From Lachnospiraceae bacterium AD3010 (GTDB lineage: Bacteria; Bacillota; Clostridia; Lachnospirales; Lachnospiraceae), in contig JHWU01000007.1 in NCBI GenBank assembly GCA_000622025.1, positions 81,049 through 145,048 on the forward strand: DNA of 64,000 nucleotides. The letters are read 5' to 3'. This document shows positions 5,546 through 35,512 of the stretch, piece by piece. Each line of letters starts with the position of its first letter. Position 1 is the stretch's first letter. The position numbers and the translations under genes are program-made. The notes beneath the pieces were generated by a model that saw only the letters and a list, made by a program, of their open reading frames with translations, had not been told where the DNA came from and searched no databases.

Positions 5546-5569
5546 TTTCCGATTAATCCCTGCAGCCTT

Positions 5570-6391: not shown

Positions 6392-7638
6392 ATAAGTATC
6401 TCCTCTTTTACCGATCTGTCCGTTGATCTGAAGATCTCTCCGAAGCCCAGATCCGTTATGGTCAGTATCAGCTTTTGGGCGGATGAAAAGCTGAAATTGA
6501 GCCTTATCCTTCCCGCCCTGTCCGGACGGACCGGGAGAAAATCAAGCCTTATCACCTTATTTCTCTCGTCCTTATCGAGAATGTCGGTAATGACTATGAT
6601 AAGCTCCCTGTCCTGCCCGACCATAACCTCCATATCCTTTTGCGCCTCATACCACTTATCCCCCGCGTCCGCTACAGGGATCAGAACTTCCTTTCCCTCT
6701 GAAACAGCTCTTATACTCACGTTGGAGGAAATGGAATCATCTCCGAAATATACATATCTCCTGCTTATCCTGACAAGATCCACAATGTCAGCTGCGGCAT
6801 AGCAGGCGCCCTTGGAGTAAAGGTTCTGCCCCTTAAATACCCTTGACTTTGACAGGATAACCCTTAAGGTCTTCTGCTCCCATCTCTCGTTAAAGGCTTC
6901 ACCCGTAAGATAGGTTCCGCTTACCCCGCCTTTCAGGTCCTCCATGGCAATGGCTGAAAAACGCTCATCCAGTCTTTTCCTGTCTGCTCCGAAAAAGGGA
7001 ACCATATCCTCCCTGAATCTCTTCTTATTCCTGACAAGCGCAGGAGAAGTTGAATGGTCTATAGAAAGACAGTTAGACTCGAAGGAATTGTCGCTGTAAT
7101 CATATAAAAGCACGCCGTCACGCCATAAGCCGATGGGCTGGCTCAGAGCATAATAATAGAAGCTCTCAGCATAGCTTATGACACGGACCGATGGTATCCC
7201 TATACCTGCAGACTTCACAGCCTCCATTATGACCTTTCCCGAAAGAGGATGAACCTTCCTTTCGGTGATACAGAGCGCGTTCACTCTTGAATAGGCGGTT
7301 TCCTCGGGCAGCCTCAGAAGAAAGGATAAGAATTTCCCGAGGAGAACTATGTCCGGATCATCCCTTTTAATACCGTTTTTTTCCGAAGAATCCAGAGCCC
7401 TGCTTAAAAGAGCGGTCTCATACTCCATCTTAAAGGCCGCAGCAGAAGAGACAGCCTCCTCGCCGAATACGTACTTCTCACTTCCCGGAAGCTTAAAGGC
7501 CGCCACCGGGATCCTGAAGGCACCTTTTTCCCTGTCAACGGAATAAGTGATAACTCCCTCCTGAGGATCGTGGCAGGTGGAGATCAGTGTATACTTTTCA
7601 GATAGGTCGATTCCAACGACCAGCTGATTATTTTTCAA
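6388..7638 (-). CDS. Hypothetical protein, possibly a divergent actin/Hsp70-fold ATPase
   Basis: 416 aa. TTG start with GGAGGAG upstream. The N-terminal VVGIDLSEKYTLIS resembles the phosphate-1 motif of Hsp70/actin-fold ATPases (IGIDLGTT). DLKGGVSGTYLTG weakly resembles connect-2 (DLGGGTFD). Assignment is tentative. Confidence 0.4.
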   Translation of the reverse strand: MKNNQLVVGIDLSEKYTLISTCHDPQEGVITYSVDREKGAFRIPVAAFKLPGSEKYVFGEEAVSSAAAFKMEYETALLSRALDSSEKNGIKRDDPDIVLLGKFLSFLLRLPEETAYSRVNALCITERKVHPLSGKVIMEAVKSAGIGIPSVRVISYAESFYYYALSQPIGLWRDGVLLYDYSDNSFESNCLSIDHSTSPALVRNKKRFREDMVPFFGADRKRLDERFSAIAMEDLKGGVSGTYLTGEAFNERWEQKTLRVILSKSRVFKGQNLYSKGACYAAADIVDLVRISRRYVYFGDDSISSNVSIRAVSEGKEVLIPVADAGDKWYEAQKDMEVMVGQDRELIIVITDILDKDERNKVIRLDFLPVRPDRAGRIRLNFSFSSAQKLILTITDLGFGEIFRSTDRSVKEEILI

Positions 7639-10600: not shown

Positions 10601-11197
10601 CTCATCCTGTTCCGTGGTGTATATTACCGGGGATTTTTTGTGTATCGCGACCAGAAATTCCTCCACATTTATCTTCAATCCCGGATATACGGAAAAAGCC
10701 CTGTACAGGTTTTTGAACCTCCTGTCCGGAGTCTGGAAGATATTTATCATTTCGGGGGAATAAAAGATATTTACCGCTTCGCTGAACCGGTTTCTCGCAA
10801 GATTTGTAAAGTGAAAAAGGTTCTTTATAACACCCAGCGAGCTTTGCGGGTATTTCATCACAACACTTACGGAAAAGGGCAGACGGTATTCACCATCCTC
10901 CGTAATAAGGGAAATATCACCCTTTATCACAGTTCCCGTCATAAGACCCTTGGAATGAAATACGTAGTGTAGCTCTGCTTCTCCTTTGTCGAAGGTCACA
11001 TTGTCACATACCATCCGGGGATCACTGGTTGCGACCATTCCTCTTATTTCCTTTTTGTCTTCGGAAAGCACATGAAAAACGCCTTCGGTATCCTCATTCG
11101 GAAACACCGTAAGCTCAAGCTTCTCCTCGGGAAATTCCAGGGTCGAATGCCCGTACCCGAACTCCCCGTTTAATATCCGGTCAATATGACTCTCCAA
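7628..11197 (-). CDS. Large (1189 aa) conserved hypothetical cytoplasmic protein
   Basis: Long uninterrupted ORF with a TTG start at 11197. There is no Walker A/B motif, no transmembrane segment, and no enzymatic motif that I recognise. It is first in the four-gene co-directional module. Confidence 0.5.
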   Translation of the reverse strand: MESHIDRILNGEFGYGHSTLEFPEEKLELTVFPNEDTEGVFHVLSEDKKEIRGMVATSDPRMVCDNVTFDKGEAELHYVFHSKGLMTGTVIKGDISLITEDGEYRLPFSVSVVMKYPQSSLGVIKNLFHFTNLARNRFSEAVNIFYSPEMINIFQTPDRRFKNLYRAFSVYPGLKINVEEFLVAIHKKSPVIYTTEQDEVLLINEPDLKALQEIRIRKSGWGYIRLSVKGKGDFIRPEKETILEGDFKGDIAVLPFRIDENALHRGKNIGSIVLKSYNSEIHIPVTVDASFRWQTDENSKNFRRHKGIFDIMRLYVDFRLKRKGLSETCEQAREICAGMTDENSRDIFPRLIMTHVYLMEGRDNDASLMLSLIDNEFMLGQMHSEAEGYRKYLEAVLKKDRAYTREKSREVHALCDEDPGSAILLWLRIYLDEELGNHAGIRLELLINQFEKGVRSPLLYIEILRALTESHEGFKSGGMAEIYAINWGIKNHIYYEELISSIISVSYSLKGYSAVYLNVLKAYYNKYGSIELLEAICTLLIRERGNRKRNKDDFRWFEAGVKYGLKITRLYESYLNTVPDTLEELMPESILMYFSIGAGVGNDRMAFFYASLIRHKNEAADILKSNEQRIAAFAVKEAENRKISENLSCIYEYVSNLSIPELSKRFFLAVSPLIFTHEISVKDPLVRAVSSVENGFIRERNATVTGGKAYLNLYGGDYDLVTEYNDMRRSVARKGVVDRTLLNPVKFTKAIRLTLEREVGQAYYVCGSGRHSIQVNQVNESSIRTLSASEEIERSLRDECYFALIRHYTDHDRFDELDEILDELDISRVSPEVRAEIARLYVARGMHRKVYELIKEYGPEGVDPVILVRLISRMIGEGINTEDPTLLNLAREALKLGKYDENILNYLCVEFQGNIKDLRDIWKAARSFNIDTVRIEERILSQMLYAGSFTADRDEILLSCIENGGREKIINASLDYISHEYFVYANIVDERIFDALLKRYRDGEELNDISALALLKHFSHSEDDELKKSLSSLVDRLIESGRIFEFFKEYREYVPAMGLYHDRTFVEYRTEPDKKVLIHYCISDEESPNAEFISENMEENYSGIYSRDFVLFYGEKLQYYITEENNDDSFPTQSETLERDLMRNGRTDSRYDMINDMLLSESVNDDPSLEDLMEQYMRLSETVEEFFEK

Positions 11198-21766: not shown

Positions 21767-21899
21767 AGAAGCTATTATACTATCAGAAAAAAAAAATGTC
21801 ACCTATGAGCACCAATGCGGTATCATTATAACAATTGGCTTACAATATATGATCTTCAGTCATCATATGCGGGCAGAAGATCATTGTTGCCAATGGATA

Positions 21900-23909
21900 C
21901 TACTCCTCACGCTCTTTAATGAAATCCATATTATCTCTTTCAATATCGCTGAGCATTGTCTGTATATTAAAATCATCCGGATCAATTGTTCCGCTATACC
22001 AAGGCTTTGAATCAAAGTAAGCCTGTAACTCAGCATCCTGGAAACGACGTCCATGGCGGGCTACAATTTCATTTCTAGCTTTTCTTAGTTCATCATTTGA
22101 TAATCCTTCCAAGTCAGACTCGGTAAGATTCCTGCTTGAACTATATGGAAGAATATAATCATCATTATCATTAGTTATCGAAATTTCGTTCCCCTCATAT
22201 CCACTATATATTCCCCAATCCTCCAATTTCTGCTTAAACTCATTGTTGCCGACAGAAGTTCTAGAACACATGCTAACAGGTGTATCCTCTTTTATTTCTT
22301 CTCTTTCATCAAGCGATTTTCCAGTATACATGAAGTCTACTATAAAACCTGAGCTCCAAATTTCACAGTTTGGACAATATATTAAATTGTCATTTATTAT
22401 CGGGATATCAGTTTCGCCTATTTTGTCAGGAATTATTATACTCGCAGGCCCTTGGATAGCCACAACAATGTAATCCTTTTCATCAGAGAAATCTGGTTCC
22501 TCATGTTCTGGAGGTATCACTATTCCATATGCATAATCATATAATTTATCCTGTTCAAATCCAGATACTGCCACTAAAATTTCTGTATTATCAATTTTAT
22601 ACAATTGTTGATAACCATTATTATCTAAAGTAGTCTCATATGAAAGATCATATCCTAGTCGATTCAGATCTCCTATAGTTGTTCTATTAATTAAAATATC
22701 TCTATAAAAATCGGACGATACATCCTCGGAAATTGGCTGATCCGCTTTTTCTTTCAGTGAAAAACTAATCGTAATATCCGGCAAATATACTTCACTTTTT
22801 ACATCGCTTGTTTTCACTGACACATCTACGCCGGTATTATTCAAAACTATTTTACCTGATCCATGGTTATTCTCACTGTCATTAAAAGTAAAATCACTTC
22901 TACATCCATCAAATTTAATTGTTTCGCTGATGGTGCATTTTTTCCCTTCTTCATTCATAGCATATATTTCAATACTGCCATTGTCCTCATAGTGTTGTAG
23001 TTGAAAATATACACCATTTTCCTCATCATAATAATATCCTGAGTATTTTGCATAACATGTCTTAAGCAAAGCGGAACTATCTTTATAATCCCCCAATTCA
23101 GATAATTTTATAATTGCATCTGCATATTCACTGTTATCAATGTGTTTCAATGATTCAGAATAAAGCGCTTCTTTATCTTTCTGATCTGTCTCAGCTGCAT
23201 CCTCTTCACTTTTGTTAGTGGCTGCTATACCATCAGATAATTCATCTGTACTATTCCTCGGTTTTGCAACAAGATTCCATACTACAAGAGTTCCAACAAC
23301 AAGAATAATCAGCATAATGATCGAAATGACAATCACCAACACTCTCGTTTTGTTCTGCTGTTTATTCGATAGGATTTTGTAGTTCTGCTCTGTCTCTATT
23401 TTTCTTCCCAAAAATCTGGAAACAACTGAGATGAGATCCGATGAAGCACCTACCTGATCATATTTCAACGCTTGTATTGAATTAATTGCGGTCGGAATAT
23501 ATTTGGCATCCATTCCCAGATAAACAGGAATTATTTTTTTTGAACTTATATTTTTTTCATATCTTTCCCAAAGCTTTTCAAATGAATCTTTTGAGGTTCC
23601 AATAACCAATACAATTTTAGACACATTTAAGGCAGCCTCTTCAGTTACCTCTGCATCTCTTCCAGTAACATTTTCCAAAGATACTCTTTTATAAAACGCT
23701 TTGATTTTGTACTGCTCCAAAAGATTATATATTTCCTGGGCAATAACAGAATCCTTTGTTCTCCGTCCATTTTCATCACTTTCAGAATAGCAAATAAAAA
23801 CATCTACTTCTCCACAGAATTCCATCATGGAAAACTGACTTCCGCAGCTAGTACACGTCCATATTGAATTTTCAAATATTAGATCACCGCCACAGTTTTT
23901 ACACTTCAT
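21900..23909 (-). CDS. TIR-domain membrane protein: N-terminal zinc ribbon, TIR domain, single TM helix, extracellular region ending in a YARHG domain (paralog 3)
   Basis: Zinc ribbon CKNCGG...CTSCGS. TIR_2-like block VDVFICYSESDENGRRTKDSVIAQEIYNLLEQYKIKAFY...KIVLVIG. TM helix VLVIVISIIMLIILVVGTLVVW. Ectodomain carries a GDYKDS-type repeat and a C-terminal LSNDELRKARNEIVARHGRRFQDAELQAYFDSKPWY (YARHG motif). ATG at 23909 has GGAGG 7 nt upstream; the ORF-track start at 23927 lacks an RBS. Confidence 0.7.
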   Translation of the reverse strand: MKCKNCGGDLIFENSIWTCTSCGSQFSMMEFCGEVDVFICYSESDENGRRTKDSVIAQEIYNLLEQYKIKAFYKRVSLENVTGRDAEVTEEAALNVSKIVLVIGTSKDSFEKLWERYEKNISSKKIIPVYLGMDAKYIPTAINSIQALKYDQVGASSDLISVVSRFLGRKIETEQNYKILSNKQQNKTRVLVIVISIIMLIILVVGTLVVWNLVAKPRNSTDELSDGIAATNKSEEDAAETDQKDKEALYSESLKHIDNSEYADAIIKLSELGDYKDSSALLKTCYAKYSGYYYDEENGVYFQLQHYEDNGSIEIYAMNEEGKKCTISETIKFDGCRSDFTFNDSENNHGSGKIVLNNTGVDVSVKTSDVKSEVYLPDITISFSLKEKADQPISEDVSSDFYRDILINRTTIGDLNRLGYDLSYETTLDNNGYQQLYKIDNTEILVAVSGFEQDKLYDYAYGIVIPPEHEEPDFSDEKDYIVVAIQGPASIIIPDKIGETDIPIINDNLIYCPNCEIWSSGFIVDFMYTGKSLDEREEIKEDTPVSMCSRTSVGNNEFKQKLEDWGIYSGYEGNEISITNDNDDYILPYSSSRNLTESDLEGLSNDELRKARNEIVARHGRRFQDAELQAYFDSKPWYSGTIDPDDFNIQTMLSDIERDNMDFIKEREE

Positions 23910-23911
23910 GA

Positions 23912-26263
23912 TTAATCCTCCAGCCATACGTCTTTTACAGCTGTTTTCCCATCTGTTTCCGTGCCATCGCTTTTATAAATTGATCCGCTTTGTGAAATAC
24001 AGAATCCATCCTTTAGGTATATAGCACCTTCTAAGATCTTTATGTCACTTCCAAGTTTAGATAAGTTGTTTCTTGAATCTATGACATAAGCTGTATGATT
24101 CTCTGACCATAGGTCTTTAATGTTTTCCTTCTCAGAAATACTTCCATCATCAAAATTAAAAATATGCATTATGTCATTACTATCCAGTGCAGCAATATAA
24201 TATCTTGATATCTGAATATCTTTGATCTCAGATAATCCATCCAAAAAGGCTTCCATTTCTAAGCGATGATAGAATTCTTCTTCCGGATCTCCACTTGTAA
24301 AACCATTTATCTCATAATCAACATAATGAACTTTTCCAAAATTATCTAGACCTACTAAAACAGCTTTCGCAAGCGTCCCCGAACTATAAACACCTTTTTC
24401 ATCCCAGTCAATTTTTATTATGTTGCGCCAATTCTTGACAGGATTTAACCATTCATCGCTTGCAACGTTATCTTTTACTATTTCCCCAACAATAACTGAT
24501 CCATCATTTTTTAAGGCTACATTCGTAAAATTAAAACGGTCTGATATTTGGATTATATTCTCCCAGTCTTTATCTAATCCGTTAAGAACGGCCGAATTAC
24601 AAACAAATCCATCCTCATACAAAGCGTATAATCCAGGATAATTTGCTCCAATAGAAATAACCTTTCCATGACTATTAACATCAAGATCACCCTTTTTCGG
24701 ATATTCAACAAAGTCCCCGGAATCATCATAACCCAACTCAACATTGTTATTTCCTTTATCAAAGCCGAATGAATCGACTGAACCATTCCCATTTATATAA
24801 TATGACCCCGAAGGAGATCTTCCACCGTCAAAATCCGTAGTCAACGCAACTGTAGAAACACTTTCTCTCCACTTCTTTTCGCATTTTTCCAGCATTTCCT
24901 GAACTTCGGGATAGTCCCCGATCTTCTGTAATGCCCATGTCGCCTCTGCATATTTCCGATCATAATACAACTGCATGGCTGCATCATAATCAGCCTGATA
25001 GGTACATTTTACTGCCAGCTCCGCAGCGTCCTCATAACCCCCGATTCTGCCAAATATGGCCTTGGCCTCATCATATCGCCCGGAAGCAAACAGTTCCTGT
25101 GCCTCTTCATATCCTGCCTGATTGGATGTTTTTACAGACAACTCCGCCGCATCTTCATAATCTCCAAGTTCGTCATAAATAGCCTGTGCTTCTTCATATT
25201 TCCCGGCTGTATAAAGCTCCTGCGCCTTGGTATACTTCTTTTCATTTTCAGCCTGCTTCCGTGCCGGTATGGTTATCAGCAGAACAAGCGGAATTCCAAC
25301 CACTATCGCAACCAGCCCTGCGATCATAAGAGTCTTTCTGGTCTTTTTTCTCCGCTCTTTCAGGATTATCGGTGTGGGAATCAGTTTCTTTATGCCGCGG
25401 ATCAGCTCCTGTTCAAAATCCTCCGCCCCCATGTTCTGGGCAGAAAGAAGAGCGAACTCCTCCGGGAGCCCGCTTTCATCCATATCAAAATATACCGGGA
25501 TAAGTGTTTTTGACGTATCTTTCCTGCGGAGCGTCAGATATCTGCTCCATTCGTTCTTTACCCACGCAGATTGTATGTTCTCAGATGAAGAACATACTGT
25601 AATCATTACTTTGCTGGAAGAAAGAGCCGCATAGATATAAGGCTCGTACTCTTCGCCTATCTTGGACTCCAGAGTTATTCTGGAGAAGAATACCTTATAT
25701 CCAAGTTCTGTCAGTTTCTCGTATAATTTCTGGGCTTCTATACTATCCTTGGTACGGTTCCCGTTGGCATCAGTTTCCTTGTAAGATATGAAAACATCAA
25801 AGGGTTTCTCTCTCTTTGACACTTCAAGAATCCCTTTCTGAATATTTTCAATGATCCCGGCATCCCGCTTATATAATTCTGCCTTATCTCCCACAGATAG
25901 TTCCAGCGCCCGAAGATAATTCTCATCCTTCAGCACGGAATCCGTGTGTGTCCTGTTACAGGTCGGGATGTACCGACCAGTCTGGGGATCCTTTGCATAT
26001 GTCACGCCATACTTACAAAGCACAAGATCCCAGTATATCTCTGCATCATTAGGATTAACAGAAAGCAACTGGCTGAAAATACCTTCTGCCTTGTCATATT
26101 CATTATGAAGAAGATACTGATTTCCACGTTCATACAGCGCTTTTGAGCTATCATCCCCGAAGAGTGGAAGCGTCTGCTTTGTTCCGCAGTAGTCGCAGAC
26201 TGCGATGCGAGTCTTCTGATCAATAGTTAAACTACCGGCACAGATCTTGCATTTATACTCCAT
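23912..26263 (-). CDS. TIR-domain membrane protein: zinc ribbon, TPR-like region, TIR domain, TM helix, extracellular helical repeats plus beta-rich domain (paralog 2)
   Basis: 783 aa. Zinc ribbon CKICAGS...CDYCGT. TIR block PFDVFISYKETDANGNRTKDSIEAQKLYEKLTELGYKVFFSRITLES...VMITVCSSSENIQSAWVKNEWSRY. TM helix TLMIAGLVAIVVGIPLVLLITI. Three ~35-aa repeats (GKYEEAQAIYDELGDYEDAAEL). C-terminal beta-rich region. Confidence 0.7.
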   Translation of the reverse strand: MEYKCKICAGSLTIDQKTRIAVCDYCGTKQTLPLFGDDSSKALYERGNQYLLHNEYDKAEGIFSQLLSVNPNDAEIYWDLVLCKYGVTYAKDPQTGRYIPTCNRTHTDSVLKDENYLRALELSVGDKAELYKRDAGIIENIQKGILEVSKREKPFDVFISYKETDANGNRTKDSIEAQKLYEKLTELGYKVFFSRITLESKIGEEYEPYIYAALSSSKVMITVCSSSENIQSAWVKNEWSRYLTLRRKDTSKTLIPVYFDMDESGLPEEFALLSAQNMGAEDFEQELIRGIKKLIPTPIILKERRKKTRKTLMIAGLVAIVVGIPLVLLITIPARKQAENEKKYTKAQELYTAGKYEEAQAIYDELGDYEDAAELSVKTSNQAGYEEAQELFASGRYDEAKAIFGRIGGYEDAAELAVKCTYQADYDAAMQLYYDRKYAEATWALQKIGDYPEVQEMLEKCEKKWRESVSTVALTTDFDGGRSPSGSYYINGNGSVDSFGFDKGNNNVELGYDDSGDFVEYPKKGDLDVNSHGKVISIGANYPGLYALYEDGFVCNSAVLNGLDKDWENIIQISDRFNFTNVALKNDGSVIVGEIVKDNVASDEWLNPVKNWRNIIKIDWDEKGVYSSGTLAKAVLVGLDNFGKVHYVDYEINGFTSGDPEEEFYHRLEMEAFLDGLSEIKDIQISRYYIAALDSNDIMHIFNFDDGSISEKENIKDLWSENHTAYVIDSRNNLSKLGSDIKILEGAIYLKDGFCISQSGSIYKSDGTETDGKTAVKDVWLED

Positions 26264-26588
26264 AATTCCCCCATAAATTCAGTTTAATGATATTAATTAT
26301 TACTTCCAATCAAAGGTTTTTGTATCAACCAATTGTCCATCTGGATCATATAACCTAGCAGCGACTGTTAGACTTGGTGCTTTACTAGGCGTATCCCAAC
26401 TCCTGTTATACCACCAATAACTATAACCATCCGTTGACCTACTAACTACAACTTCCATTCTTTTGTTTGGTTCTCCTTTTCAAGTATAGCTTTCTCTCTA
26501 CTATTCCTCTCCAATATCCACCACAAAGGCTTATTGGCAAAATGACGCATTTTCTCAAACAAACAGTTTCAATTCAACAGATACCGCA

Positions 26589-28619
26589 TCAATGGAAGAA
26601 TTCACCTCCCCAATTTAGCATTCGTACATTATTCACCGTAACATAATACTCTTGCTTCGGTTCTTTTAAGCTGAGAATAGTCTTCGCTGCCTCATTATTT
26701 ACAGCATAATAAGAGTACTTATTATTTCCGCTAAATGCGTATCCATTTCGTGTATATATTATTTTATTATTATCTGAATAACTGATCCATTTCTCTCCCA
26801 GACTTTCTATCCTGTTTATTATTTTAAGGTATTGGTTGTTTGATAAATAGTAATCAATGTGATTAAAATCACCCATTTCCAATACTCTATCGTATAAATT
26901 GCTTAAATTATCACCTTCCTGAACATTCTCAAGTTGATACATAATATCGCAAAATTCCTGATATTTTTCATCTCCAGGTATTTCTTTGTAATAGGAATAT
27001 GCAACGTCATATTTTCGTGCATCCATAAGCTCTTTGGCATATGGCTCAATATATTGCGGATCCTTTTCCAGCAGTCCAATATCCTTAAATAAATCCAGTG
27101 CTTCAGTATATTCTTCTTTCTTAAACAGATTATCAGCTCGTTCGATACTATCCTCATTAATTTTTTCCTTACTGTTTTCAATAAGATCATTTATGTTTTT
27201 ATATCCTTCTATTTCTTCGGCAGCAGTCAAAAACGATTCATAATCACCTTTTTCATATAACTCTAGAGCACTTTTGTATTTTGAATTTAAAGATATTTCC
27301 TTTGCAACAAGAGAAGCTCCGTATCCCAGCATAATCAATACGAAAATTAGAATCACACAAACCAAAAAAAGCCTAGTCCTTTTTACTGCTATTTTCCTGC
27401 TTTCATCCTTTTTTTTTCGATAAATACTAACCTGTTTCTTGAGCAACTCTATATCTTCATTGCTGCCAAATCTGATAGCATTAATATACGAACTATTCTT
27501 ATCGAACGGTGTATTCTACTTTCCCAGTTCATCGATACTTTTCACATTAAGCTCGGCACATAGCTTCATAATGTATGTATTTGAATCTTCCGGAATTAAA
27601 TCTAATACTTTGTCACAATAAGATTTTGCATTTGCAAAATCACCATTATCTATAAAAACTTCAATTCTTTTCTTTAATGCTGCAACATCTATGTTACTCC
27701 GTAAATATTGGGAGGATTGTATTACCGGGTTAATAATCTTATATATTCCTCTAATCAAGTCCTGCATGCTCCCGAGTTTTCCCATATCTAAAGCCTGCAT
27801 ATATGAGAACTCATCCGGTAAATCATAAGGATCCATATCTTTGTATGCAGGAATAAGTGTTTTATTTTCACCGGAATTAATGAGTCCGATATATCTTGAC
27901 CATTCATTTTTTACCCAAGCGGCATTAAAATATTCTACCTTGGTCCCAACGACTATCATAATTTTTGCGGAATTAAGTGCAGCAAAGATATATGGCTCAT
28001 ATTCACTTCCCAGTTTGTCCTCCAATGATATTCGGGAAAAGAAAACTTTATATCCCTCACGTGTAAGCTCATTATAAATTTCCTGGGCTATTACACTGTC
28101 TACTGTTCTCTTTCCGTAATCATCTGTTTCCTTATAACAGATGAAGATGTCATAAGGCTCCTCTTTATTTGATATATCAAGTATATTTTTTTGGATATTA
28201 TCAATGATTCTTGCTTCTGACTCTATGACATCACATTGTTCAGGTGACGTGTATTTAATGGCTAATTTATAATTATGATCATCAAAAACAGATTGGAGTT
28301 GTGTCCTGTTTACTGTAGGAATTCTTTTTTTTGTTCTAGGATCTTCAACATACTCTATTCCATACCGGCATAACACCAGATCCCAATACACTTCTGCATC
28401 AGTATCATCTTCTAGCAACACCTGTTCATATAACGCGGCTGCCTTGTCGAAATCACTTATTCTACGGTAATGATCTGCCCTGTCATAGAGACTCGCTTTA
28501 CGCTCACTTGTCATTCTAGGAAGAATCTGCTTTGTACCGCAATATAAGCAGGTTGCAGTACCTTCACCATTAGGTTCCAAATCCCCACCACAGATTTTAC
28601 ATTTTAAAATTCCTTCCAT
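26589..28619 (-). pseudogene. Third ZnR-TPR-TIR-TM-ectodomain paralog interrupted by one in-frame amber codon (TAG at 27516-27518); possibly expressed as a soluble ZnR-TPR-TIR fragment of 367 aa
   Basis: ORFs 27516..28619 and 26589..27446 are in the same frame (72 nt apart). The 24 intervening codons read without another stop (NTPFDKNSSYINAIRFGSNEDIE). The upstream part contains zinc ribbon CKICGG...CLYCGT and TIR block PYDIFICYKETDDYGKRTVDSVIAQEIYNELTREGYKVFFSRISLED...AAWVKNEWSRY. The downstream part begins with TM helix LFLVCVILIFVLIMLGYGASLVA followed by ectodomain repeats. The fused architecture matches the two intact neighbours. Confidence 0.6.
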
Positions 28620-28648
28620 AGCAACCTCTAAAAGATGTCTTCCAGTGA

Positions 28649-29590
28649 TTATTGATCAGTTATTGATCTTTCTATGCTTTTTTGAATATCGTCCACAGCA
28701 TCATAATAGAACTTTTCATATAATTGGCTCTTTTCGGAATCATTACTATCAATTCTATATCCCAGAGTTCTTACTTCAGCGCCATAACATCTTAAAAGAT
28801 CGTGCTTTCTATCCGCATTATCTGTCTGCGGTTCATAGAAGAACAGCTTTCCATGGGAAGCTTTCTCTCTATTTTTCCTCTCCAAAAGCCACCACAGATC
28901 CATTTCTGCAAAATCGTATCCAAATCCCAGAACATAAATATCGTTCATAATAAAAGCATCTACCCAGGATCTGATGGATGCCTCTTTATTGTTTACTTCA
29001 CTCCACTTATACCGGGCACCTGATTTTTGCAGATATGATTTAATCTTAAATAACAGGTTGCCGTAATAATAATGCCCTATAACCATACTACTGGAATTTT
29101 TGCAATGACCATGTATGTGCCAGATTCTTTTATCCATGCCATCATTGGAAATCTTTTGAAATGTGTGCAAGAAAATATTAGCTTCTTTTCTGGTAATACC
29201 AATCCCTCGGATATAATCAGAAATAGAATTCACCCTTGAAGAAGATATTCTTTCTCCAATGATATGATTGGCTGCCTCTTCAAGTTCAAATCCATAGTTT
29301 ACTGTCAATATATCCTCCACAGGCAAGGATATTAGCTTCCCATAGTACTCCGCCTGCTTTTTTTGTGTTAGGCATCCCCATATCTCAGTGGCAGATTTCT
29401 TCATGGCATTATGAACATCATTATTAGTACCCAGAACTATTTTCAACGTAAATGGGATATCATCTGATTCTGATATCATCTGATTTCCCTTTGATGACTG
29501 CTTAAGTAAATTATCGAGTGAAATAGATCCTTTATCAAAAGACCGATTGATTCCATTCCCTATCAGTATTGATGATTTATACATACCCAT
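28649..29590 (-). CDS. Standalone SIR2-like (SIR2_2 family) putative NAD+-consuming enzyme, no SLOG or other sensor domain
   Basis: 313 aa. The motif order matches the ThsA-type SIR2 domain. ILIGNGINRSF aligns with the GAG motif. TVNYGFE aligns with TTNYD. IWHIHGH aligns with KMHGD. VLGFGYDFAEMDLWWLL aligns with FVGFSFTDPNLDYIL. The gene lies 29 nt upstream of the TIR paralog array. One base appears to be missing from the printed line at 29581, so coordinates follow the ORF track. Confidence 0.6.
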   Translation of the reverse strand: MGMYKSSILIGNGINRSFDKGSISLDNLLKQSSKGNQMISESDDIPFTLKIVLGTNNDVHNAMKKSATEIWGCLTQKKQAEYYGKLISLPVEDILTVNYGFELEEAANHIIGERISSSRVNSISDYIRGIGITRKEANIFLHTFQKISNDGMDKRIWHIHGHCKNSSSMVIGHYYYGNLLFKIKSYLQKSGARYKWSEVNNKEASIRSWVDAFIMNDIYVLGFGYDFAEMDLWWLLERKNREKASHGKLFFYEPQTDNADRKHDLLRCYGAEVRTLGYRIDSNDSEKSQLYEKFYYDAVDDIQKSIERSITDQ

Positions 29591-29616
29591 TCCTCATACT
29601 GCCAAAGATTCTGTTT

Positions 29617-31389
29617 TTATTCGAGGTTTATCCATATAGCAGGTCTTACTCCTTTATCCCTTACATGGATATCCCCGGTGCTTTCGACATTTGCGTCAGG
29701 CGTTGCGTACTTAAAGCCCTTTCTTGCTTCATCCCGGAGCCACCAGTCAGAATCACAGGACAAATCTGTTCCTTTTGACTTCAGCGCTTTTACTTCACCA
29801 TCTGATAACAGGGAAATCTTCAGTCCATCAGTATCTATGATCTGATTCAGATCCTTTTCTGTGAATTCATTCAGGAAGTCACCGTTGAGCCACTTGCATA
29901 TATCTGAATCCTCAAATGAAGTGTCAGTTATATCATCGCTTACCGGCAGATCCCTCATAGGCTTGTCGGCCAGAAGATGCATCTTCTCATATCCGACCAT
30001 TTCAATTATCCGCCAAGCAATGGGCTCCCCGTTATATGTTCCAAGATACAGTATCTTATCCGAGGACTGTCTGTTGAATATTTCCACAAGTCTTTCCCGG
30101 GAATCTTTATATGGGGTTACCTCAAAATACAATCCTGTTGCAGTTTCATAGTCACCCTTCGCATAAGCTTCCTCTGCAGCAGTATACTTCTGTTCGCAGA
30201 TAATAGCCCGAATCTCCTCGATCTTGTCATTACTATCTTTATATCCGTCAAGAGCTTCAAACGCTGAGATAGCCTCATCATATTTCTCTTCATTCATAAG
30301 CTGCATTGCGGCATCATATGCCTTTTCCTTAATAAGCATCTTTATTTCTTCTATCTTCTGGGGACTGTCAGAAAAATCTCCCAGTTCTTCAAAAGCTGCT
30401 ATCGCCGCATCATACTCGCCGGCTTCCATAAGCTTCATGGCTTCATCATATGCAGCCTGCTTTATTATGGTATGGATTTCCTCTATCTTATCTTCACTAT
30501 CCTTATATCCACCCAATTCTTCGAACTTTTCTATGGCAGAGTCATAATCCTCATTCTTCATGAATTCACAGGCTTTCTTGTATTCCATTTCTGGAGCCAC
30601 AAAAAATACAATGGCCAGGACTGCAATAATAAGCCCAAGGGAAATAAGAATCCCTGCAACAGCAAATTTATTTCCGGCACCGGGCTTCGCATCAACAGCA
30701 GGATCCTTAACCCTTTTAAGTGTCTTGCACTGATTATTCCTGTTTTTCATGAGATCCGATATTTCATCACAAAGTGTGACAGCGTTCTGCGGATCCCCGG
30801 CACTGTCCTTCAGGGCCATGGTTTTATTCAGAATCTCTTTTTCAATACCTTCTAGCTGGGAATGGCTCATGGGATCGCTGTATGTTATGTCCTCAATAAG
30901 CCTCTGAATCTTTTTCTTAAGCTCAGCGTCTTCTGTTTTGATCGTCTGCAGTTCGTTCTTTAGCGTATCCTTAAACAGGACTTTTTTAACGACCTGCTCA
31001 TCGTTTTCACCGATCTTTGATGTGAATGCTGATATAATCAATACAAGGAACGTATATGCTATAGCAATCCCAAGATTTACTACGAGAGCGGTTTCATAGG
31101 GAAGGAACCCGGATGTAATCTCCTTATATGAGTATGCAAGCTGCGCAACAAAGAACAGCCAGGATAGCACAACCACCGGAATATTCAGGAACTGTTCTTC
31201 TTTTGTCCTTTTGCTGAAAAATTTGAAGATGGATACGAACATAACGATCAGGGCGTACCCCCCGAACAGATATGCCATCCAGAACACCAGCGTCTTCTCC
31301 TGTGGAAGTAAGAATGATGCTATGGAAAACGCTGTAAAAGAAATAATGGCGATCAGCAGACTGATCCCCTGCCCTTTGTTAAGCTTCAT
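29617..31389 (-). CDS. Multi-pass membrane protein with cytoplasmic coiled-coil and extracellular GDYKDS-type helical repeats plus a C-terminal beta domain
   Basis: 590 aa. Four N-terminal TM helices, a fifth TM (FAVAGILISLGLIIAVLAIVFFV) and three ectodomain repeats (EDYDSAIEKFEELGGYKDSEDKIEEI; GEYDAAIAAFEELGDFSDSPQKIEEI; EKYDEAISAFEALDGYKDSNDKIEEI). These are the same repeat type as in the TIR paralog ectodomains. It sits 26 nt upstream of the SIR2 gene. Confidence 0.55.
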   Translation of the reverse strand: MKLNKGQGISLLIAIISFTAFSIASFLLPQEKTLVFWMAYLFGGYALIVMFVSIFKFFSKRTKEEQFLNIPVVVLSWLFFVAQLAYSYKEITSGFLPYETALVVNLGIAIAYTFLVLIISAFTSKIGENDEQVVKKVLFKDTLKNELQTIKTEDAELKKKIQRLIEDITYSDPMSHSQLEGIEKEILNKTMALKDSAGDPQNAVTLCDEISDLMKNRNNQCKTLKRVKDPAVDAKPGAGNKFAVAGILISLGLIIAVLAIVFFVAPEMEYKKACEFMKNEDYDSAIEKFEELGGYKDSEDKIEEIHTIIKQAAYDEAMKLMEAGEYDAAIAAFEELGDFSDSPQKIEEIKMLIKEKAYDAAMQLMNEEKYDEAISAFEALDGYKDSNDKIEEIRAIICEQKYTAAEEAYAKGDYETATGLYFEVTPYKDSRERLVEIFNRQSSDKILYLGTYNGEPIAWRIIEMVGYEKMHLLADKPMRDLPVSDDITDTSFEDSDICKWLNGDFLNEFTEKDLNQIIDTDGLKISLLSDGEVKALKSKGTDLSCDSDWWLRDEARKGFKYATPDANVESTGDIHVRDKGVRPAIWINLE

Positions 31390-31414
31390 ACCTCGACCCC
31401 TCCTGTTTCAAATA

Positions 31415-32587
31415 TTATTTCAACATATCCTTCATAAGTTCTGCTTTTGCTGCCGCGAACTCTTCATCTGATAACATGTTCATTTCCTGCATCATTTTCA
31501 GTTTTTCCAGTTTTTTCTTAAAATCATCAACCGACTGATCCGCAGGCTGTGCCCCGTCTGATGAATTAATGCTGTCTATGGTCTCATTCATCATTCCCCC
31601 GACCATGCCGCCAACAGTTCCTCCGACTCCGGCCATCATGCCCAGACCTATTCCCATGTTGGTAAACTCTCCGGAAGCCTCATTTTCGGCAATCTTTTCA
31701 GCCACATCGAAGCCTCTTTCCTGTTGATAGGTATATCCTTCCTGCTGCCGTTTCGTAGCCAGTGCCTGTGATTCTATCACGGTCTTCTTTGCTTCAGTCT
31801 CAGCATCAATAACCTCTGTCTTCTGACGTAGCTGCGCCTCCGCAATATCAGAGTACTGTCTAACATGGATTTCCTTATACTTCTCATATGCTGTGTCCCC
31901 AACAGGCTTGGCGATATTCGTAACCATGAATTTCTGCAGGGTTATACCATAATCGTCAAAGTCCGGGGTGAGCTTATTGAACAGGTTATCTGAGAACTCA
32001 TCCATATGGGAGTCCACTTCAAATATGGAATAATCCGCAGACTGCATGGAATTTGCAATATAGGGCTTTATCTTTGAATTAAGGATAGAACGGAATTTCT
32101 GAACCAGCGCATCCTGTGTCAGATTCTTTTCCGTTCCCACAACTTTAACGACCAGCCTTCTGGAATCGTTAACCGAGAGGATCATTTCTCCGGATAACCC
32201 TATCTGCAGAGGGAAATTATACTTCGGATCCATGTACTGAACCTGCGAGTCAGTTCCCCAGCGGATAGCCATGTGGCTGGTCATACTTATGAAATATACC
32301 TCACAATGGAAAGGACTCTTTCCGCCGGTAGGTATGTTTATCAGTTCTTTTAATATCGGGATATTGTTGGTGCTCAGGGTATACCGCCCTGCCGGGAAGA
32401 GATCGAGCGCCTGCCCGTCCTTAAAGAACAGAGCCTCCTGATTCTCGTGAACTATCAGCTGACTCAGTGTGTTAAAGTCTTCCTTGGGATGTTTCCAAAC
32501 AAAGTTGTTGTTATTCCCCTCATATTTGATTACAGATGTGATACCATCTATATTCAGCACATTCGGAATTATACTTGATAATGCCAT
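31415..32587 (-). CDS. SPFH (band-7)-domain protein with C-terminal SHOCT domain, B. subtilis YdjI-like
   Basis: 390 aa. N-terminal block FVWKHPKEDF...ALFFKDGQALDLFPAGRYTLSTNNIPILKEL...FHCEVYFISMTSHMAIRWGT matches the YdjI-type SPFH pattern. Gly/Met-rich linker GIGLGMMAGVGGTVGGMVGGMM. C-terminal SHOCT-like LEKLKMMQEMNMLSDEEFAAAKAELM. GGGGG RBS 8 nt before the ATG. Confidence 0.65.
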   Translation of the reverse strand: MALSSIIPNVLNIDGITSVIKYEGNNNNFVWKHPKEDFNTLSQLIVHENQEALFFKDGQALDLFPAGRYTLSTNNIPILKELINIPTGGKSPFHCEVYFISMTSHMAIRWGTDSQVQYMDPKYNFPLQIGLSGEMILSVNDSRRLVVKVVGTEKNLTQDALVQKFRSILNSKIKPYIANSMQSADYSIFEVDSHMDEFSDNLFNKLTPDFDDYGITLQKFMVTNIAKPVGDTAYEKYKEIHVRQYSDIAEAQLRQKTEVIDAETEAKKTVIESQALATKRQQEGYTYQQERGFDVAEKIAENEASGEFTNMGIGLGMMAGVGGTVGGMVGGMMNETIDSINSSDGAQPADQSVDDFKKKLEKLKMMQEMNMLSDEEFAAAKAELMKDMLK

Positions 32588-32730
32588 TGATCAACCCCCG
32601 TATAATTACTGTTGTTTCAAAAAGCAGACTTTCTGAAACAGGAGATTTATAATAAAAAGGCCGTAAATCATTGACATTCTTTTAGATTTTTTAGTGTTTC
32701 TTATTGTCTACATTCCAAAACAGGATGATC

Positions 32731-33345
32731 TTACTGTCGTATTTTCTGATGTAATATTAGTTCTTTACATCTTCGATAAAAGGTGGTGTGTGACATTTCA
32801 GCGAAATCAGCAGCTTCTCTTGATGAAAGTTCCCCTGAGACCCACCTGTTGTACGCGTCCATAAACTGATCTGTCTCATTAGTCCTTGGTCTTCCAAACC
32901 GTATACCGCGAATCTTTGCTGCGGTAATCCCCTCTTTTTGACGCTGTTTGATCATCACACGCTCTGTCTCAGCAACATATGCCAATATCTGCAATACTAG
33001 ATCTGAAATAAATCTGCCAGTCAGTCCTTCCTTACCGGTATTGGTATTCAAGAGCGGCATATCCAGTACTTCAATATCTGCGCCCTTTTCTTTTGTAATA
33101 ATTTCCCATTGTTTCAGTATCTCTCCATAGTTTCTTCCAAGCCGATCAATACTTTTTATCACAATACAGTCCTTATTTTTAATTCTTTTTAGCAACTGCT
33201 TGTATTGTGGGCGGTTAAAATCTTTTCCGGATTCAAAATCTATGAAAATTGATGACCTGTTTATTCCCCTTTCTACCAATGCATCTAACTGCCTGTCCGG
33301 CTTCTGATCTTTTGAAGAGATTCTCACATACCCATAAATACTCAT
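32731..33345 (-). CDS. Small serine recombinase (resolvase/invertase family)
   Basis: 204 aa. MSIYGYVRISSKDQ carries the catalytic Ser motif GYxRVSxxxQ, followed by IVIKSIDRLGRN and a C-terminal HTH (MSHTTFYRRCKEL). Confidence 0.85.
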   Translation of the reverse strand: MSIYGYVRISSKDQKPDRQLDALVERGINRSSIFIDFESGKDFNRPQYKQLLKRIKNKDCIVIKSIDRLGRNYGEILKQWEIITKEKGADIEVLDMPLLNTNTGKEGLTGRFISDLVLQILAYVAETERVMIKQRQKEGITAAKIRGIRFGRPRTNETDQFMDAYNRWVSGELSSREAADFAEMSHTTFYRRCKELILHQKIRQ

Positions 33346-33405
33346 CTTTCCCTGCCTCCTTTATGTTTTTAAAAACAATAAATCGGGCAATAAGAAACAC
33401 AATTT

Positions 33406-33428
33406 AATGTACTTAATTTAAGTACATT
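33406..33428. promoter_or_regulatory. Perfect 23-bp palindrome AATGTACTTAAtTTAAGTACATT plus a third half-site (33458-33468); candidate recombinase res/crossover site or RHH operator
   Basis: Read directly from the sequence between the recombinase start (33345) and the RHH ORF start (33491). The half-site AATGTACTTAA is repeated 30 nt downstream. Confidence 0.45.
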
Positions 33429-33490
33429 TTAAACATAATATCACATTCGGAACTTAGAATGTACTTAAATTGAACTTTTGAGATTATTAT

Positions 33491-33652
33491 ATGAATAAAC
33501 GGGAAAAAGATAAGCATTTGGGATTACGTATTGATTCGGAAATGCACAAAAAATTAAAAGAAATGGCTGAATATGAAGGTCGCTCCATTAATGGTGAAGT
33601 TCTTTATCTGATACGTCAGGCTATCAAGGAATTTGAAAAAACAGTAGAATGA
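33491..33652 (+). CDS. Arc/MetJ-type ribbon-helix-helix (RHH) DNA-binding protein, 53 aa, below the ORF-track length cutoff
   Basis: The ATG..TGA frame encodes MNKREKDKHLGLRIDSEMHKKLKEMAEYEGRSINGEVLYLIRQAIKEFEKTVE. The beta-strand LGLRID followed by two helices, and the RSINGEVLY motif, are typical of Arc/CopG RHH proteins. It is divergent from the recombinase and flanks the palindrome. The RBS is weak. Confidence 0.5.
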   Translation: MNKREKDKHLGLRIDSEMHKKLKEMAEYEGRSINGEVLYLIRQAIKEFEKTVE

Positions 33653-33744
33653 ATGTCTGTGATCGTAGGCTAGAGCGCAATCGATGGTTTTGTGCACGTA
33701 AATTCACAGCTTAGGTCTACACAGGCGTTAAAAAATGTAACAAG

Positions 33745-33790
33745 AAAACAGCTGCCATCATATGATGGTCATATGGAGATTGCCGCAGCT
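33745..33790 (-). terminator. Rho-independent terminator of the PD-(D/E)xK gene
   Basis: Immediately after the TAA stop (33791-33793), the minus strand has stem AGCTGC...GCAGCT enclosing palindrome CCATCATATGATGG, followed by TGTTTTCTTGTT. Confidence 0.45.
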
Positions 33791-34714
33791 TTATTTCTTT
33801 ATCAGCCCTTCATATAAAGAACGCTGAGACTGTGGGATTTTTAGAGAATCCATTGCTTTCTCAACATTAACCCCAAAGGAATCCATAACATTTCTTATTG
33901 CCCTAATTAGCGTTTCCTGTTCCTTTTCATTTACCTTTTCATTTACCTTTTCATCTACCCGGTCCTTCATGATTTCCATCAATATATCACCAGCCATATC
34001 ATTTCTCCTTATCTCCTCAAAGATCTGAGGGTTCTTCACTGCCAATAGTTCTATCAGAACTCTGTAATGATCCCTTAAACTGTCTGTCCTTTCTTTATCT
34101 GCGAATACTATTACCCGTTCCACATCTTCTTCAGCAGCTTTATCCGTTAAGGCCCTGTATGCTGCGTATTCCTCGCCCTGAAGCTCCCCCGTGATAATGA
34201 TCTGAAAAGGGATGTCCGTTATTCCTTTTACAAGATAGATTCCCGGTGCATCCCCTTTGATGAGATTCCCGGATCTCTCCATTGTCTTAAAGAGCTTCGG
34301 ATTCTTCACCGCGCGGAAGATGGATATCGTTACATCGTCTGCCTTAATATCTCCCTCATGTTCTGCGATTCCGATATATAGATACGCATAAGCAGCTATC
34401 TTTCGGATTACCCGTTCATTCAAAGAATCATGGGGATTCTTATATTCAAGAATGTTATGCTTATGGAAGATCTTGAAAATGTCCTTATCAAATTCAACCT
34501 TTTCATCTTCGATAAGCACCACGTAGTCCGCCCTTGGCGGTTCTTCTCCCAGAACTTCTTCTGTCAGCAAACGGATACTGTTTCCGTATTTATAGGTCTC
34601 TATCCTTAGAAGGGCTTCAAACCCTGTATGCCAGTCACTGCGGGGTGTAGCCAGAAGTTCCTTTAAGGCCGCCCGGTGAAAGGCTATTTTCTCTTTTCGT
34701 TCCTTATCTGTCAT
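33791..34714 (-). CDS. Putative PD-(D/E)xK nuclease of the Rpn/YhgA-like (transposase_31) recombination-promoting family
   Basis: 307 aa. PD-(D/E)xK-like motifs ADYVVLIEDE and ILEYKNP sit in the N-terminal half, with a helical C-terminal region. Assignment is by motif only. Confidence 0.4.
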   Translation of the reverse strand: MTDKERKEKIAFHRAALKELLATPRSDWHTGFEALLRIETYKYGNSIRLLTEEVLGEEPPRADYVVLIEDEKVEFDKDIFKIFHKHNILEYKNPHDSLNERVIRKIAAYAYLYIGIAEHEGDIKADDVTISIFRAVKNPKLFKTMERSGNLIKGDAPGIYLVKGITDIPFQIIITGELQGEEYAAYRALTDKAAEEDVERVIVFADKERTDSLRDHYRVLIELLAVKNPQIFEEIRRNDMAGDILMEIMKDRVDEKVNEKVNEKEQETLIRAIRNVMDSFGVNVEKAMDSLKIPQSQRSLYEGLIKK

Positions 34715-34942
34715 GATAATATTTTACTATTATTCTGTTCAAATCTCAATAATGCGCAAAAACCCTGTTTGTGCCATCATTTTTATTAAAGAAGCCCAAA
34801 AAAGCAACATATAATTTGTAGAAAAATATATCTTACATTTTTGATTTTGAAGTGTTAAAATCGACTTTGCACGGTTTGTTTTTGGTTTTGCAACAAGGGC
34901 ACAGGGACGATCCCGCCGCCCTATCTTAGGAAAGGAGCTATA

Positions 34943-35446
34943 ATGTATAAAACCGGAGATTATGTTGTTCATAAGGTTGACGGATTATGTAAGATAACTG
35001 ATATTTCCAGTCTTGACATTCCTGACTGCGATAACGATATCAAGTATTACTATCTGATCCCCACCGAGTCACCCGCAAGTAAGGTCTATGTGGCTGTCGG
35101 AAAAGGAGAAGGATCTCTTCGCGACCCGCTTACAGAGAAGGAAGCACTTGACGTTATCGATTCATATAATGAGCTTGACGAAATATCCGTTGAGAGTGAA
35201 AAGAACCGTCAGAACGCATATTCCCAGGCTCTTGTACAGAATGATGCCACCGAGCTTATGCGCCTTATCAAGACCACCTGGCACAGGAAGAATGAAAGGT
35301 TAAAGAAGGGACGCACAGCGACTACAGTGGATGAGCACTTCCTAAAATCTGCCGAGCATGCCCTCTATGGAGAGCTTGCCTATGCCCTCGGTATAGAGAG
35401 CGGCAACAATATGGTCGATTTCATTAAGGCAAGGATATCAAAGTGA
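34943..35446 (+). CDS. CarD/CdnL family RNA-polymerase-binding transcription regulator
   Basis: 167 aa. MYKTGDYVVHKVDGLCKITDI...IKYYYLIP...LRDPLTEKEA matches the CarD_CdnL_TRCF N-terminal domain (MFKxGDxVVhPxHGxGxI...YYxL). Confidence 0.75.
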   Translation: MYKTGDYVVHKVDGLCKITDISSLDIPDCDNDIKYYYLIPTESPASKVYVAVGKGEGSLRDPLTEKEALDVIDSYNELDEISVESEKNRQNAYSQALVQNDATELMRLIKTTWHRKNERLKKGRTATTVDEHFLKSAEHALYGELAYALGIESGNNMVDFIKARISK

Positions 35447-35512
35447 TATTTTAAGTTCTTAGTTTTATGTAAACCTCTCATGGAGATGGAACAAAGTGAT
35501 GATGTTTGAAAA

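Follow-up and report, generated by a model that had tools for sequence, protein, structure and literature searches.

A TIR and SIR2 gene cluster of Lachnospiraceae bacterium AD3010 and its relation to an SPFH–TIR cassette of gut and rumen Clostridia

Known bacterial defence based on TIR and SIR2 domains senses infection inside the cell. In Thoeris, ThsB is a small, cytosolic TIR protein, and ThsA is a SIR2-SLOG protein in type I systems and combines a transmembrane segment (TM) with a Macro domain in type II systems. Single SIR2 domains of immune type, termed ‘SIRim’ (bioRxiv 10.1101/2024.09.18.613514), are found in AbiH, in KomC of the Kongming system and in FAM118B/SIRanc. Here we describe a cluster of TIR and SIR2 genes between 21.9 and 32.6 kb of a 64,000-nt stretch of DNA from Lachnospiraceae bacterium AD3010 (GenBank assembly GCA_000622025.1, contig JHWU01000007.1, positions 81,049 to 145,048 of the forward strand). 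This whole stretch is called the window below; plain coordinates are positions in it, and L-numbers (L003, L085 and so on) stand for loci of relatives. An earlier note on this DNA had suggested that the cluster could be an unusual variant of Thoeris or else a different NAD-based module. We do not file the locus under Thoeris, because neither a ThsB-type TIR protein nor a sensor-bearing ThsA nor an obligate partnership of the two was found. The second proposal fits the cassette data reported here. Our preferred reading, which we regard as plausible though short of probable, is that the locus is a partly decayed copy of a cassette widespread in gut and rumen Clostridia, and that this cassette would be a phase-variable, membrane-based, NAD+-consuming module with SIR2 as an optional effector. 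Its domains are familiar, and so is a logic centred on NAD; as far as the searchable literature shows, its architecture, partner genes, exchangeable slot and likely phase variation are new.

Gene order and the conserved cassette

Seven open reading frames (ORFs) of the window, G7 to G1, lie head to tail between 21.9 and 32.6 kb, all on the minus strand. The unit reaches position 32587 and takes in G6 and G7, which lie beyond 29590. G7 (31415–32587, 390 aa), with which the conserved cassette begins, is an SPFH protein with a Band_7_1 match of 137.6 bits (Pfam cut-off 24) and a weak C-terminal SHOCT match. G6 (29617–31389, 590 aa) begins with a four-TM (4-TM) domain, which is followed by a fifth TM, TPR-like repeats of the GxYxDS type and a DUF6273 ectodomain (40.3 bits, Pfam); its hydropathy peaks lie at residues 6, 33, 66, 99 and 238. 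The N-terminal part of G6 corresponds to a core protein, here called TMn, that stands alone with ~230 aa in relatives and is fused to the extra parts in the window. G5 (28649–29590, 313 aa) is a single-domain SIR2 protein. G4 (27516–28619, 367 aa) shows the order zinc ribbon–TPR–TIR–TPR (TIR_2, 46.2 bits), and G2 (23912–26263, 783 aa) the order zinc ribbon–TPR–TIR (TIR_2, 53.2 bits), followed by one TM at residue 309 by hydropathy, TPR-like repeats and an ectodomain. G1 (21900–23927, 675 aa) consists of a divergent zinc ribbon–TIR part (TIR_2, 27.1 bits), one TM at residue 191 by hydropathy and an ectodomain with a YARHG match of 85.9 bits; its start likely lies 18 nt farther downstream, giving 669 aa, the length of the gene call in L003. 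The intergenic gaps are 25 nt (G7–G6), 26 nt (G6–G5) and 29 nt (G5–G4), and the last two bear out the earlier description of a 313-aa SIR2_2-like gene set off by 26–29 nt. The domain scan of G1, G2 and G4 likewise agrees with the earlier view that the TIR domains sit in large proteins with zinc ribbon, TPR, TM and ectodomain parts. The predicted Pfam assignments stood in part: G2 and G4 exceed the TIR_2 gathering cut-off of 28 bits, but G1 falls just under it, and so does G5 with SIR2_2 (23.0 bits, cut-off 24.5). Both of these low-scoring matches have independent support, from the aligned TIR motif for G1 and from the modelled fold and the Pfam annotation of homologs for G5.

Relatives were collected in two scans, one for the G5 family over one genome per species and one for the TIR family over metagenomes, each of which gave 80 loci. 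Among the TIR-query loci we observed an SPFH homolog in 58 of 80 (38 of 46 when only loci of at least 8 kb are counted), a TMn homolog after the SPFH gene in 59 and SPFH and/or TMn in 66, whereas a SIR2-like gene was present in 7. From these numbers it follows that the conserved core is made up, in this order, of the SPFH gene, the 4-TM gene and between one and five genes for TIR receptors, and that SIR2 is optional. Seen from the SIR2 side, the same arrangement recurs in 16 species-level loci: 16 of the 80 SIR2-like species loci lie with TIR and/or SPFH homologs, and where at least 3 kb are available on both sides, 8 of 43 are in the cassette. The SPFH proteins of cassette relatives themselves carry zinc ribbons. 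An independent look-up with TMn returned Band_7_1–TMn–TIR_2 clusters in L166 and L168, and a word-based search with the TMn domain gave only 9 relatives. The TIR family as a whole comprises at least 5900 protein clusters and is very abundant in gut and rumen Clostridia; defence databases have no annotation for it.

The window copy of this cassette is damaged in two places. One in-frame TAG (27516–27518, minus strand) splits G4 from the G3 region (26589–27515, minus strand), which stays in the frame of G4 and encodes a linker, a TM and a repeat/ectodomain part. The G3 ORF as listed (26589–27446, 285 aa, TTG start) has a TM at residue 18 by hydropathy, and the Pfam scan gave no match for it. In tblastn a 736-aa homolog gave one alignment (28625–27084) that runs through the stop, and translation past the TAG continues with family-conserved sequence. 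Because of the shared frame, the single TAG and the conserved sequence beyond it, we read G4 and G3, on sequence grounds, as one disrupted 677-codon gene for a zinc ribbon–TPR–TIR–TM–ectodomain protein, of which G4 would be the soluble, N-terminal cytoplasmic part. The same TAG is present in L003, which is an independent assembly. A sense-codon reading of TAG was rejected and the triplet taken as a stop, since TAG ends two other ORFs of the window. The earlier claim of three consecutive TIR_2 genes therefore needs to be narrowed: G1, G2 and G4 carry the domain, but the G3 ORF lies between G4 and G2.

The second lesion is a SIR2-like relic of 56 nt (26488–26543, minus strand) in the 325-nt gap directly upstream of G2. 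It matches G5 with 80% identity (E 1e-10) and encodes FANKPLWWILERNSREKA, compared with FAEMDLWWLLERKNREKA at residues 227–244 of G5; the family motif at this place is ...LWW.LER..REKA. The relic points to an earlier duplication of a SIR2-plus-TIR unit, after which one of the SIR2 copies disappeared. L085 and L025 are cassette relatives that are better preserved than the window copy.

The cassette occupies varied chromosomal settings, as the neighbourhoods of L166 and L168 differ. At L166:1-1758 it adjoins TnpV, RhuM and a helix-turn-helix gene, which is a mobile-element setting, and in L168 it lies between FGGY-kinase, MutY-like and topoisomerase (GyrB/ParE-type) genes. Among plasmids G4 had no match and G5 a single distant one, in Vibrio, and viral contigs contained 2 TIR loci and no SIR2-like locus. 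A phage-borne origin was dropped because of this near-absence from viral contigs.

TIR receptors, the SIR2 protein and its slot

Alignment A2, which combines G4, 24 of its homologs and the TIR parts of G2 and G1, shows W235 and E239 (G4 numbering) to be invariant. Each of the three TIR copies of the window has the W-x-x-x-E motif at the aligned position: WVKNEW starts at residue 235 in G4 and at residue 234 in G2, with E239 and E238 as the predicted catalytic residues, and G1 has WERYEK with E124. In NAD-cleaving TIR domains this motif bears the catalytic Glu (cf. WVHKE in SARM1). Among related TIR ORFs the pattern W[VID][KR]NEW was found in 145 of 145. A TM follows the TIR domain in 102 of the 129 complete TIR ORFs, and 96 of these have exactly one. 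When a TIR protein is encoded upstream of the SPFH gene it usually has no TM. Many cassettes hold both kinds of TIR paralog, one of ~660–900 aa with no predicted TM upstream of the SPFH gene (L093, L096, L098, L104, L105, L108, L109, L112, L113, L122 and L123) and a membrane-spanning one downstream of the 4-TM gene.

Past the TM the proteins are variable: of 91 such regions, 45 contain DUF6273, 21 have RCC1-like repeats, 8 a lipocalin-like domain and 2 LRR_5. DUF6273 has a C-type-lectin-like fold that occurs in phage receptor-binding proteins diversified by retroelements (PMC10743442, PMC11792537). When the A2 profile was compared with solved structures, the sole TIR match was the animal TLR15/TLR2 TIR domain (E 3e-5), and no bacterial ThsB or other bacterial TIR domain was matched. 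Foldseek with the G4 model returned TPR proteins only, all with E > 0.01, so that the TIR domain is left without a structural placement. No solved structure was matched when G7 and G4 served as single-sequence queries.

For G5 the assignment is more direct. The residues GNG (G11-N12-G13), N98 and H158/H160 show no variation among 41 sequences, and N98 aligns with the catalytic N112 of ThsA; N98 and H160 are the predicted catalytic residues. The AlphaFold model has a confidence score (pLDDT) of 93, and Foldseek placed ThsA, KomC and DSR2 at the top; the model also matches the SIR2 domain of FAM118B. By structure comparison the fold is nearer to immune SIR2 proteins than to deacetylase sirtuins. 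On the strength of the invariant residues, the confident model and these top folds, G5 is classified as an immune-type SIR2, or SIRim, predicted from its modelled fold to be a NADase and nearest to KomC, ThsA and FAM118B. The earlier statement that TIR and SIR2 genes share an operon is upheld, and the predicted catalytic residues of both are intact. Many homologs of G5 are annotated with PF13289 (SIR2_2) and/or PF14253 (AbiH), and G5 itself has no AbiH match in Pfam. The family counts 2029 representative clusters, of which the best 150 range in length from 186 to 359 aa.

G5 occupies a slot that follows the 4-TM gene and precedes the first TIR gene. Other cassettes have their core-gene interspaces, often at the same position, filled by other small ORF families (L084 to L163; for example L092:8874-9998, L105:8585-9778, L132:692-1684, L110:2728-3267 and L096:6270-6995), and these ORFs are often directly upstream of a TIR gene. 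The families include DUF2971 proteins (5 loci), proteins of ~180 aa with a weak HEPN-type match (6 loci), zinc ribbon–TPR proteins that lack a TIR domain, two families of ~230 and ~340 aa with unassigned function, and a 142-aa TIR protein at L142:8960-9388 that matches ThsB (2e-23) and PDC-S66 (7e-40). A further group (5 loci) has GAG, TTNY and HG motifs and weak matches to AbiH and to the PADLOC SIR2 model; we call it AbiH/SIR2-like from these motifs and weak matches only, and the profile–profile comparison of this group (A4) with the G5 family gave a probability of 4%.

The cassette-linked SIR2 genes are scattered over the family tree (neighbour-joining, computed without support values). G5 and the SIR2 protein in the same slot of L085 share 42% identity, compared with 70% for the adjacent TIR proteins. 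Across the 16 species loci, SIR2 and TIR genes mostly abut, and spacings go down to an overlap of 4–8 nt with the SPFH gene. The swapped slot, the scattered tree, the lower identity of the SIR2 proteins, the tight spacing and the relic argue for a link between SIR2 and cassette that is real but facultative, and not for an obligate sensor–effector pair of the Thoeris type.

The strongest competing explanation makes G5 a hitch-hiker, namely an autonomous abortive-infection gene of the AbiH kind that has settled at a hot spot of recombination within the cassette and is functionally independent of the TIR proteins. We consider this unlikely, though it deserves to be weighed seriously. About 80% of the G5 family lies outside cassettes, including the closest relative (66% identity), which has no TIR neighbour. 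The AbiH Pfam model is found in G5 homologs and the family is always single-domain; moreover, the slot contents turn over among unrelated families, and a second SIR2 copy has decayed in the window. However, ~20% of the species loci are inside one particular cassette and usually touch a TIR gene, which is far above random placement. SIR2-type genes are also among the commonest slot classes, with 7 loci of the G5 family and 5 of the second group out of 80.

Signalling of the Thoeris kind would have the activated TIR proteins make an ADP-ribose-derived nucleotide that directly switches on the stand-alone SIR2 protein and leads to NAD+ depletion. Several features speak for it. TIR and SIR2 genes form part of one operon, frequently including more than one TIR gene, just as some Thoeris loci have multiple copies of ThsB; the Glu of the TIR domain and the Asn/His of the SIR2 domain are kept, and the SIR2 domain of ThsA is among the folds closest to G5. 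In addition, SIR2-type genes of at least two or three lineages were repeatedly recruited beside TIR genes. We nevertheless judge this explanation improbable. No SLOG, Macro or other ligand-sensor domain was found in G5 or its best 150 relatives, and the earlier description of a stand-alone SIR2 protein that lacks these sensor domains holds. The TIR proteins, unlike the small cytosolic ThsB, are membrane receptors of 670–780 aa. The SIR2 gene is missing in ~90% of cassettes, the constant partners being the SPFH and 4-TM proteins, and the slot also holds unrelated proteins that share no sensor domain. Model searches point the same way. With PADLOC at E ≤ 0.01 the ThsB model matched none of G1, G2 and G4, the ThsA model did not match G5, and Pfam PF08937 gave no match. 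Across all nine island proteins PADLOC returned no ThsA or ThsB match, only weak TIR-level matches to PDC-S66 and a weak LmuA match (G5). NCBIfam gave nothing above its cut-offs: ThcB4 of Thoeris type III reached 21.6–24.6 bits (cut-off 220), and the similarity to retron TIR proteins was far below threshold.

SIR2-like genes were also observed next to a second kind of binding-domain gene. Outside cassettes, in 16 of the 80 species loci, a gene for a large BspA-type LRR_5 protein lies within 500 nt, always on the same strand, and in 3 loci such a gene is found solely farther away. LRR_5 neighbours are present in L006, L007, L014, L015, L019, L023, L028, L040, L041, L045, L064, L070, L073, L079 and L082. 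The LRR_5 protein of L070 and a repeat-ectodomain protein of L012, both encoded beside SIR2, have a cytoplasmic N-terminal domain, one TM and an ectodomain. From this adjacency the tie of the SIR2-like family seems broader than TIR and to involve proteins with extracellular binding domains generally, TIR not being the sole partner. In L023 the LRR_5 protein is cytoplasmic and has a BRCT domain, and in L021 a 1445-aa WD40 protein takes the place of LRR_5.

Recombinase, inverted repeats and a proposed mode of action

A gene for a small serine recombinase of the resolvase/invertase type (32731–33345, minus strand; Resolvase 96.4 bits) lies directly upstream of G7. It is enclosed by an inverted repeat (32683–33411) with arms at 32683–32706 and 33388–33411. 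The arms share a perfect 13-nt core, GTGTTTCTTATTG, at 32694–32706 and, inverted, at 33388–33400, which occurs twice in the window compared with 0.07 expected occurrences. This layout would resemble that of Hin, and the segment would be a candidate for inversion. No inversion was observed, as the orientation in L003 is the same as in the window. Promoter-like sites are at chance level (51 compared with 46.7 expected), and no promoter is assigned.

Relatives show a different arrangement of the same elements. In 8 other loci a homologous recombinase gene immediately precedes the SPFH gene, and there inverted repeats of 18–25 nt, 92–121 nt apart, lie between the two genes. Pairs were located at L128:1629-1756, L144:3655-3782, L162:8207-8375, L115:1323-1489 and L158:1778-1920, and the repeats are perfect in L128, L144 and L162, perfect repeats measuring 18–24 nt. 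Within the 450 nt that precede the SPFH gene, 14 of 60 loci have a perfect inverted pair with a length of 14 nt or more, compared with 0 of 57 control windows. These repeat pairs suggest candidate invertible promoters, and with them phase-variable expression.

Under the preferred reading of a membrane-based NAD+-consuming cassette, the parts could act together as follows. The receptors would keep their zinc ribbon, TPR and TIR parts inside the cell and expose the variable C-terminal binding domain, which is DUF6273 (C-type-lectin-like), an RCC1-like propeller, LRR_5 or, in the window, YARHG; the SPFH and 4-TM proteins would organise them in the membrane. Binding of a ligand, or a disturbance of the membrane at the receptor/SPFH complex, would cluster the cytoplasmic TIR domains, and these would use the invariant Glu to cleave NAD+. 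A second activity would come from a small accessory protein of the cytosol, co-expressed from a gene beside a TIR gene; at this locus it would be a stand-alone SIR2 NADase of immune type. The nearest structural relatives of G5 (KomC, ThsA and FAM118B) have been solved as helical or filament assemblies. Since the SIR2 protein has no ligand sensor, it would probably be recruited by protein contact, for instance with the TPR or zinc-ribbon parts, and not through a nucleotide sensor of the Thoeris type. NAD+ would finally be depleted, leading to growth arrest or abortive infection, and expression could be phase-variable via upstream inverted-repeat pairs, as proposed for the relatives. The data establish the gene content, the domain identities, the catalytic residues, the predicted membrane topology, the conserved core and the optional, swappable nature of SIR2; NADase activity, trigger, TIR–SIR2 coupling, immune role and promoter inversion are inferred from them.

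A non-immune role, in which the cassette would be a phase-variable surface-sensing or adhesion system (e.g. for host or microbial glycans) with TIR as a signalling or NAD-metabolic switch and SIR2 as a regulator, would suit the lectin-like, propeller, LRR_5 and YARHG ectodomains that are typical of surface binding, the candidate invertible promoters that classically go with surface structures, the secreted BspA-type LRR_5 neighbours of SIR2-like genes, the housekeeping flanks and the scarcity of copies on phages or plasmids, but we hold it to be doubtful, given the strictly conserved TIR catalytic motif, accessory genes of defence-typical classes (immune SIR2, AbiH-like, DUF2971, HEPN-like and ThsB-like TIR) and a G5 fold that groups with immune NADases apart from deacetylases.

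Several observations weigh against the reading as an NAD+-consuming immune cassette. The flanks of the window copy are housekeeping genes and form no classical defence island, and with its nonsense mutation and SIR2 relic this copy may be partly inactive. Most cassettes lack SIR2 and most SIR2-like genes are outside cassettes, so that a functional coupling of TIR and SIR2 is putative. The 80 metagenome loci represent the nearest relatives of G4; they are not independent samples. The AlphaFold model of G4 is poor over the TIR domain (pLDDT ~46–68, mean 72.8), and no PADLOC model matched the SPFH and TMn proteins. Most of the LRR_5 proteins adjacent to SIR2 have signal peptides, and these secreted cases fit none of the explanations considered. 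Finally, neither an experiment on an SPFH–TIR cassette nor a published description of one was found in the searchable literature.

The genes lie in an island of low GC content (~21850–35500; 0.35–0.41 compared with ~0.46 in the flanks), and this composition together with the adjacent recombinase gives the locus an accessory-genome character. The island also holds a 53-aa Arc/RHH-like ORF (plus strand, ~33490–33650) and a 307-aa ORF (33791–34714) with no family assignment. On one side it is flanked by genes for an RNase J-like protein, DHFR and ABC transporters and on the other by genes for a CarD-like protein and an ABC ATPase, with LeuRS, EF-G and RsmF farther away. A group of minus-strand genes at 1477–11197, encoding a 984-aa subtilase, a DUF5716 protein and a 1189-aa DUF5717 protein, is unrelated to the TIR/SIR2 cluster.

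Comparison with known systems

Apart from Thoeris, G5 is most similar to the SIRim proteins AbiH, KomC and FAM118B/SIRanc, with which it shares the stand-alone SIR2 domain, KomC and FAM118B being among its nearest folds. It differs from them in sequence, the identity being only 12–16%, and lies below the cut-offs of both AbiH and SIR2_2. In contrast to Kongming, no KomA or KomB partner is encoded beside G5; the partners of the family are TIR receptors or LRR_5 proteins. For the SPFH part of the cassette, the Bacillus subtilis ydjGHI-pspA operon offers a parallel, since there a band-7 SPFH protein is encoded together with zinc-ribbon and membrane proteins (PMC11237479). The cassette, however, has no PspA or TPM-domain protein, and TIR receptors are found in no described SPFH operon. 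PDC-S66, a single-gene TIR candidate of PADLOC, matches the TIR regions of G2 and G4 weakly (E 2e-8 and 2e-5). This match covers the TIR domain only, and the model comprises neither zinc ribbon, TPR, TM and ectodomain nor the SPFH and TMn partners.

In contrast to the intracellular sensing of known TIR/SIR2 defence, the membrane TIR family with its variable extracellular binding domains points to sensing at the cell surface, which would be a new entry point for bacterial immunity. The variable slot can be read as a catalogue of candidate effectors, and if the repeats of the relatives are invertible promoters, the cassette could shape phage–host dynamics in the gut.

Toll-like receptors (TLRs) of animals, with the TLR–TIRAP–SIRanc/FAM118B pathway (bioRxiv 10.1101/2024.09.18.613514), resemble the cassette in having an ectodomain, one TM, a cytoplasmic TIR domain and a stand-alone SIRim protein. 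The differences are that the cassette TIR domain is N-terminal, so that the order along the chain is reversed, that it keeps the catalytic Glu, and that the ectodomains are mostly lectin-like or propellers, LRR being rare. The resemblance is one of design, and homology is shown at the domain level only. By this analogy the cassettes might be bacterial counterparts of TLRs, that is, outside-in immune receptors with catalytic TIR domains held by SPFH proteins and with plug-in effectors such as SIR2; we offer this as a speculation, somewhat less likely still than the hitch-hiker explanation. If it were true, the diversifying ectodomain (lectin, propeller or LRR) would sense a phage particle or another external cue and the signal would cross the membrane to the TIR domain, and such surface-level phage sensing would be a form new to bacterial immunity, with thousands of proteins in gut Clostridia and perhaps with invertible promoters as its on–off switch. 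In its layout the cassette is akin to TLR signalling in animals, for which a SIR2-type partner was also reported recently.

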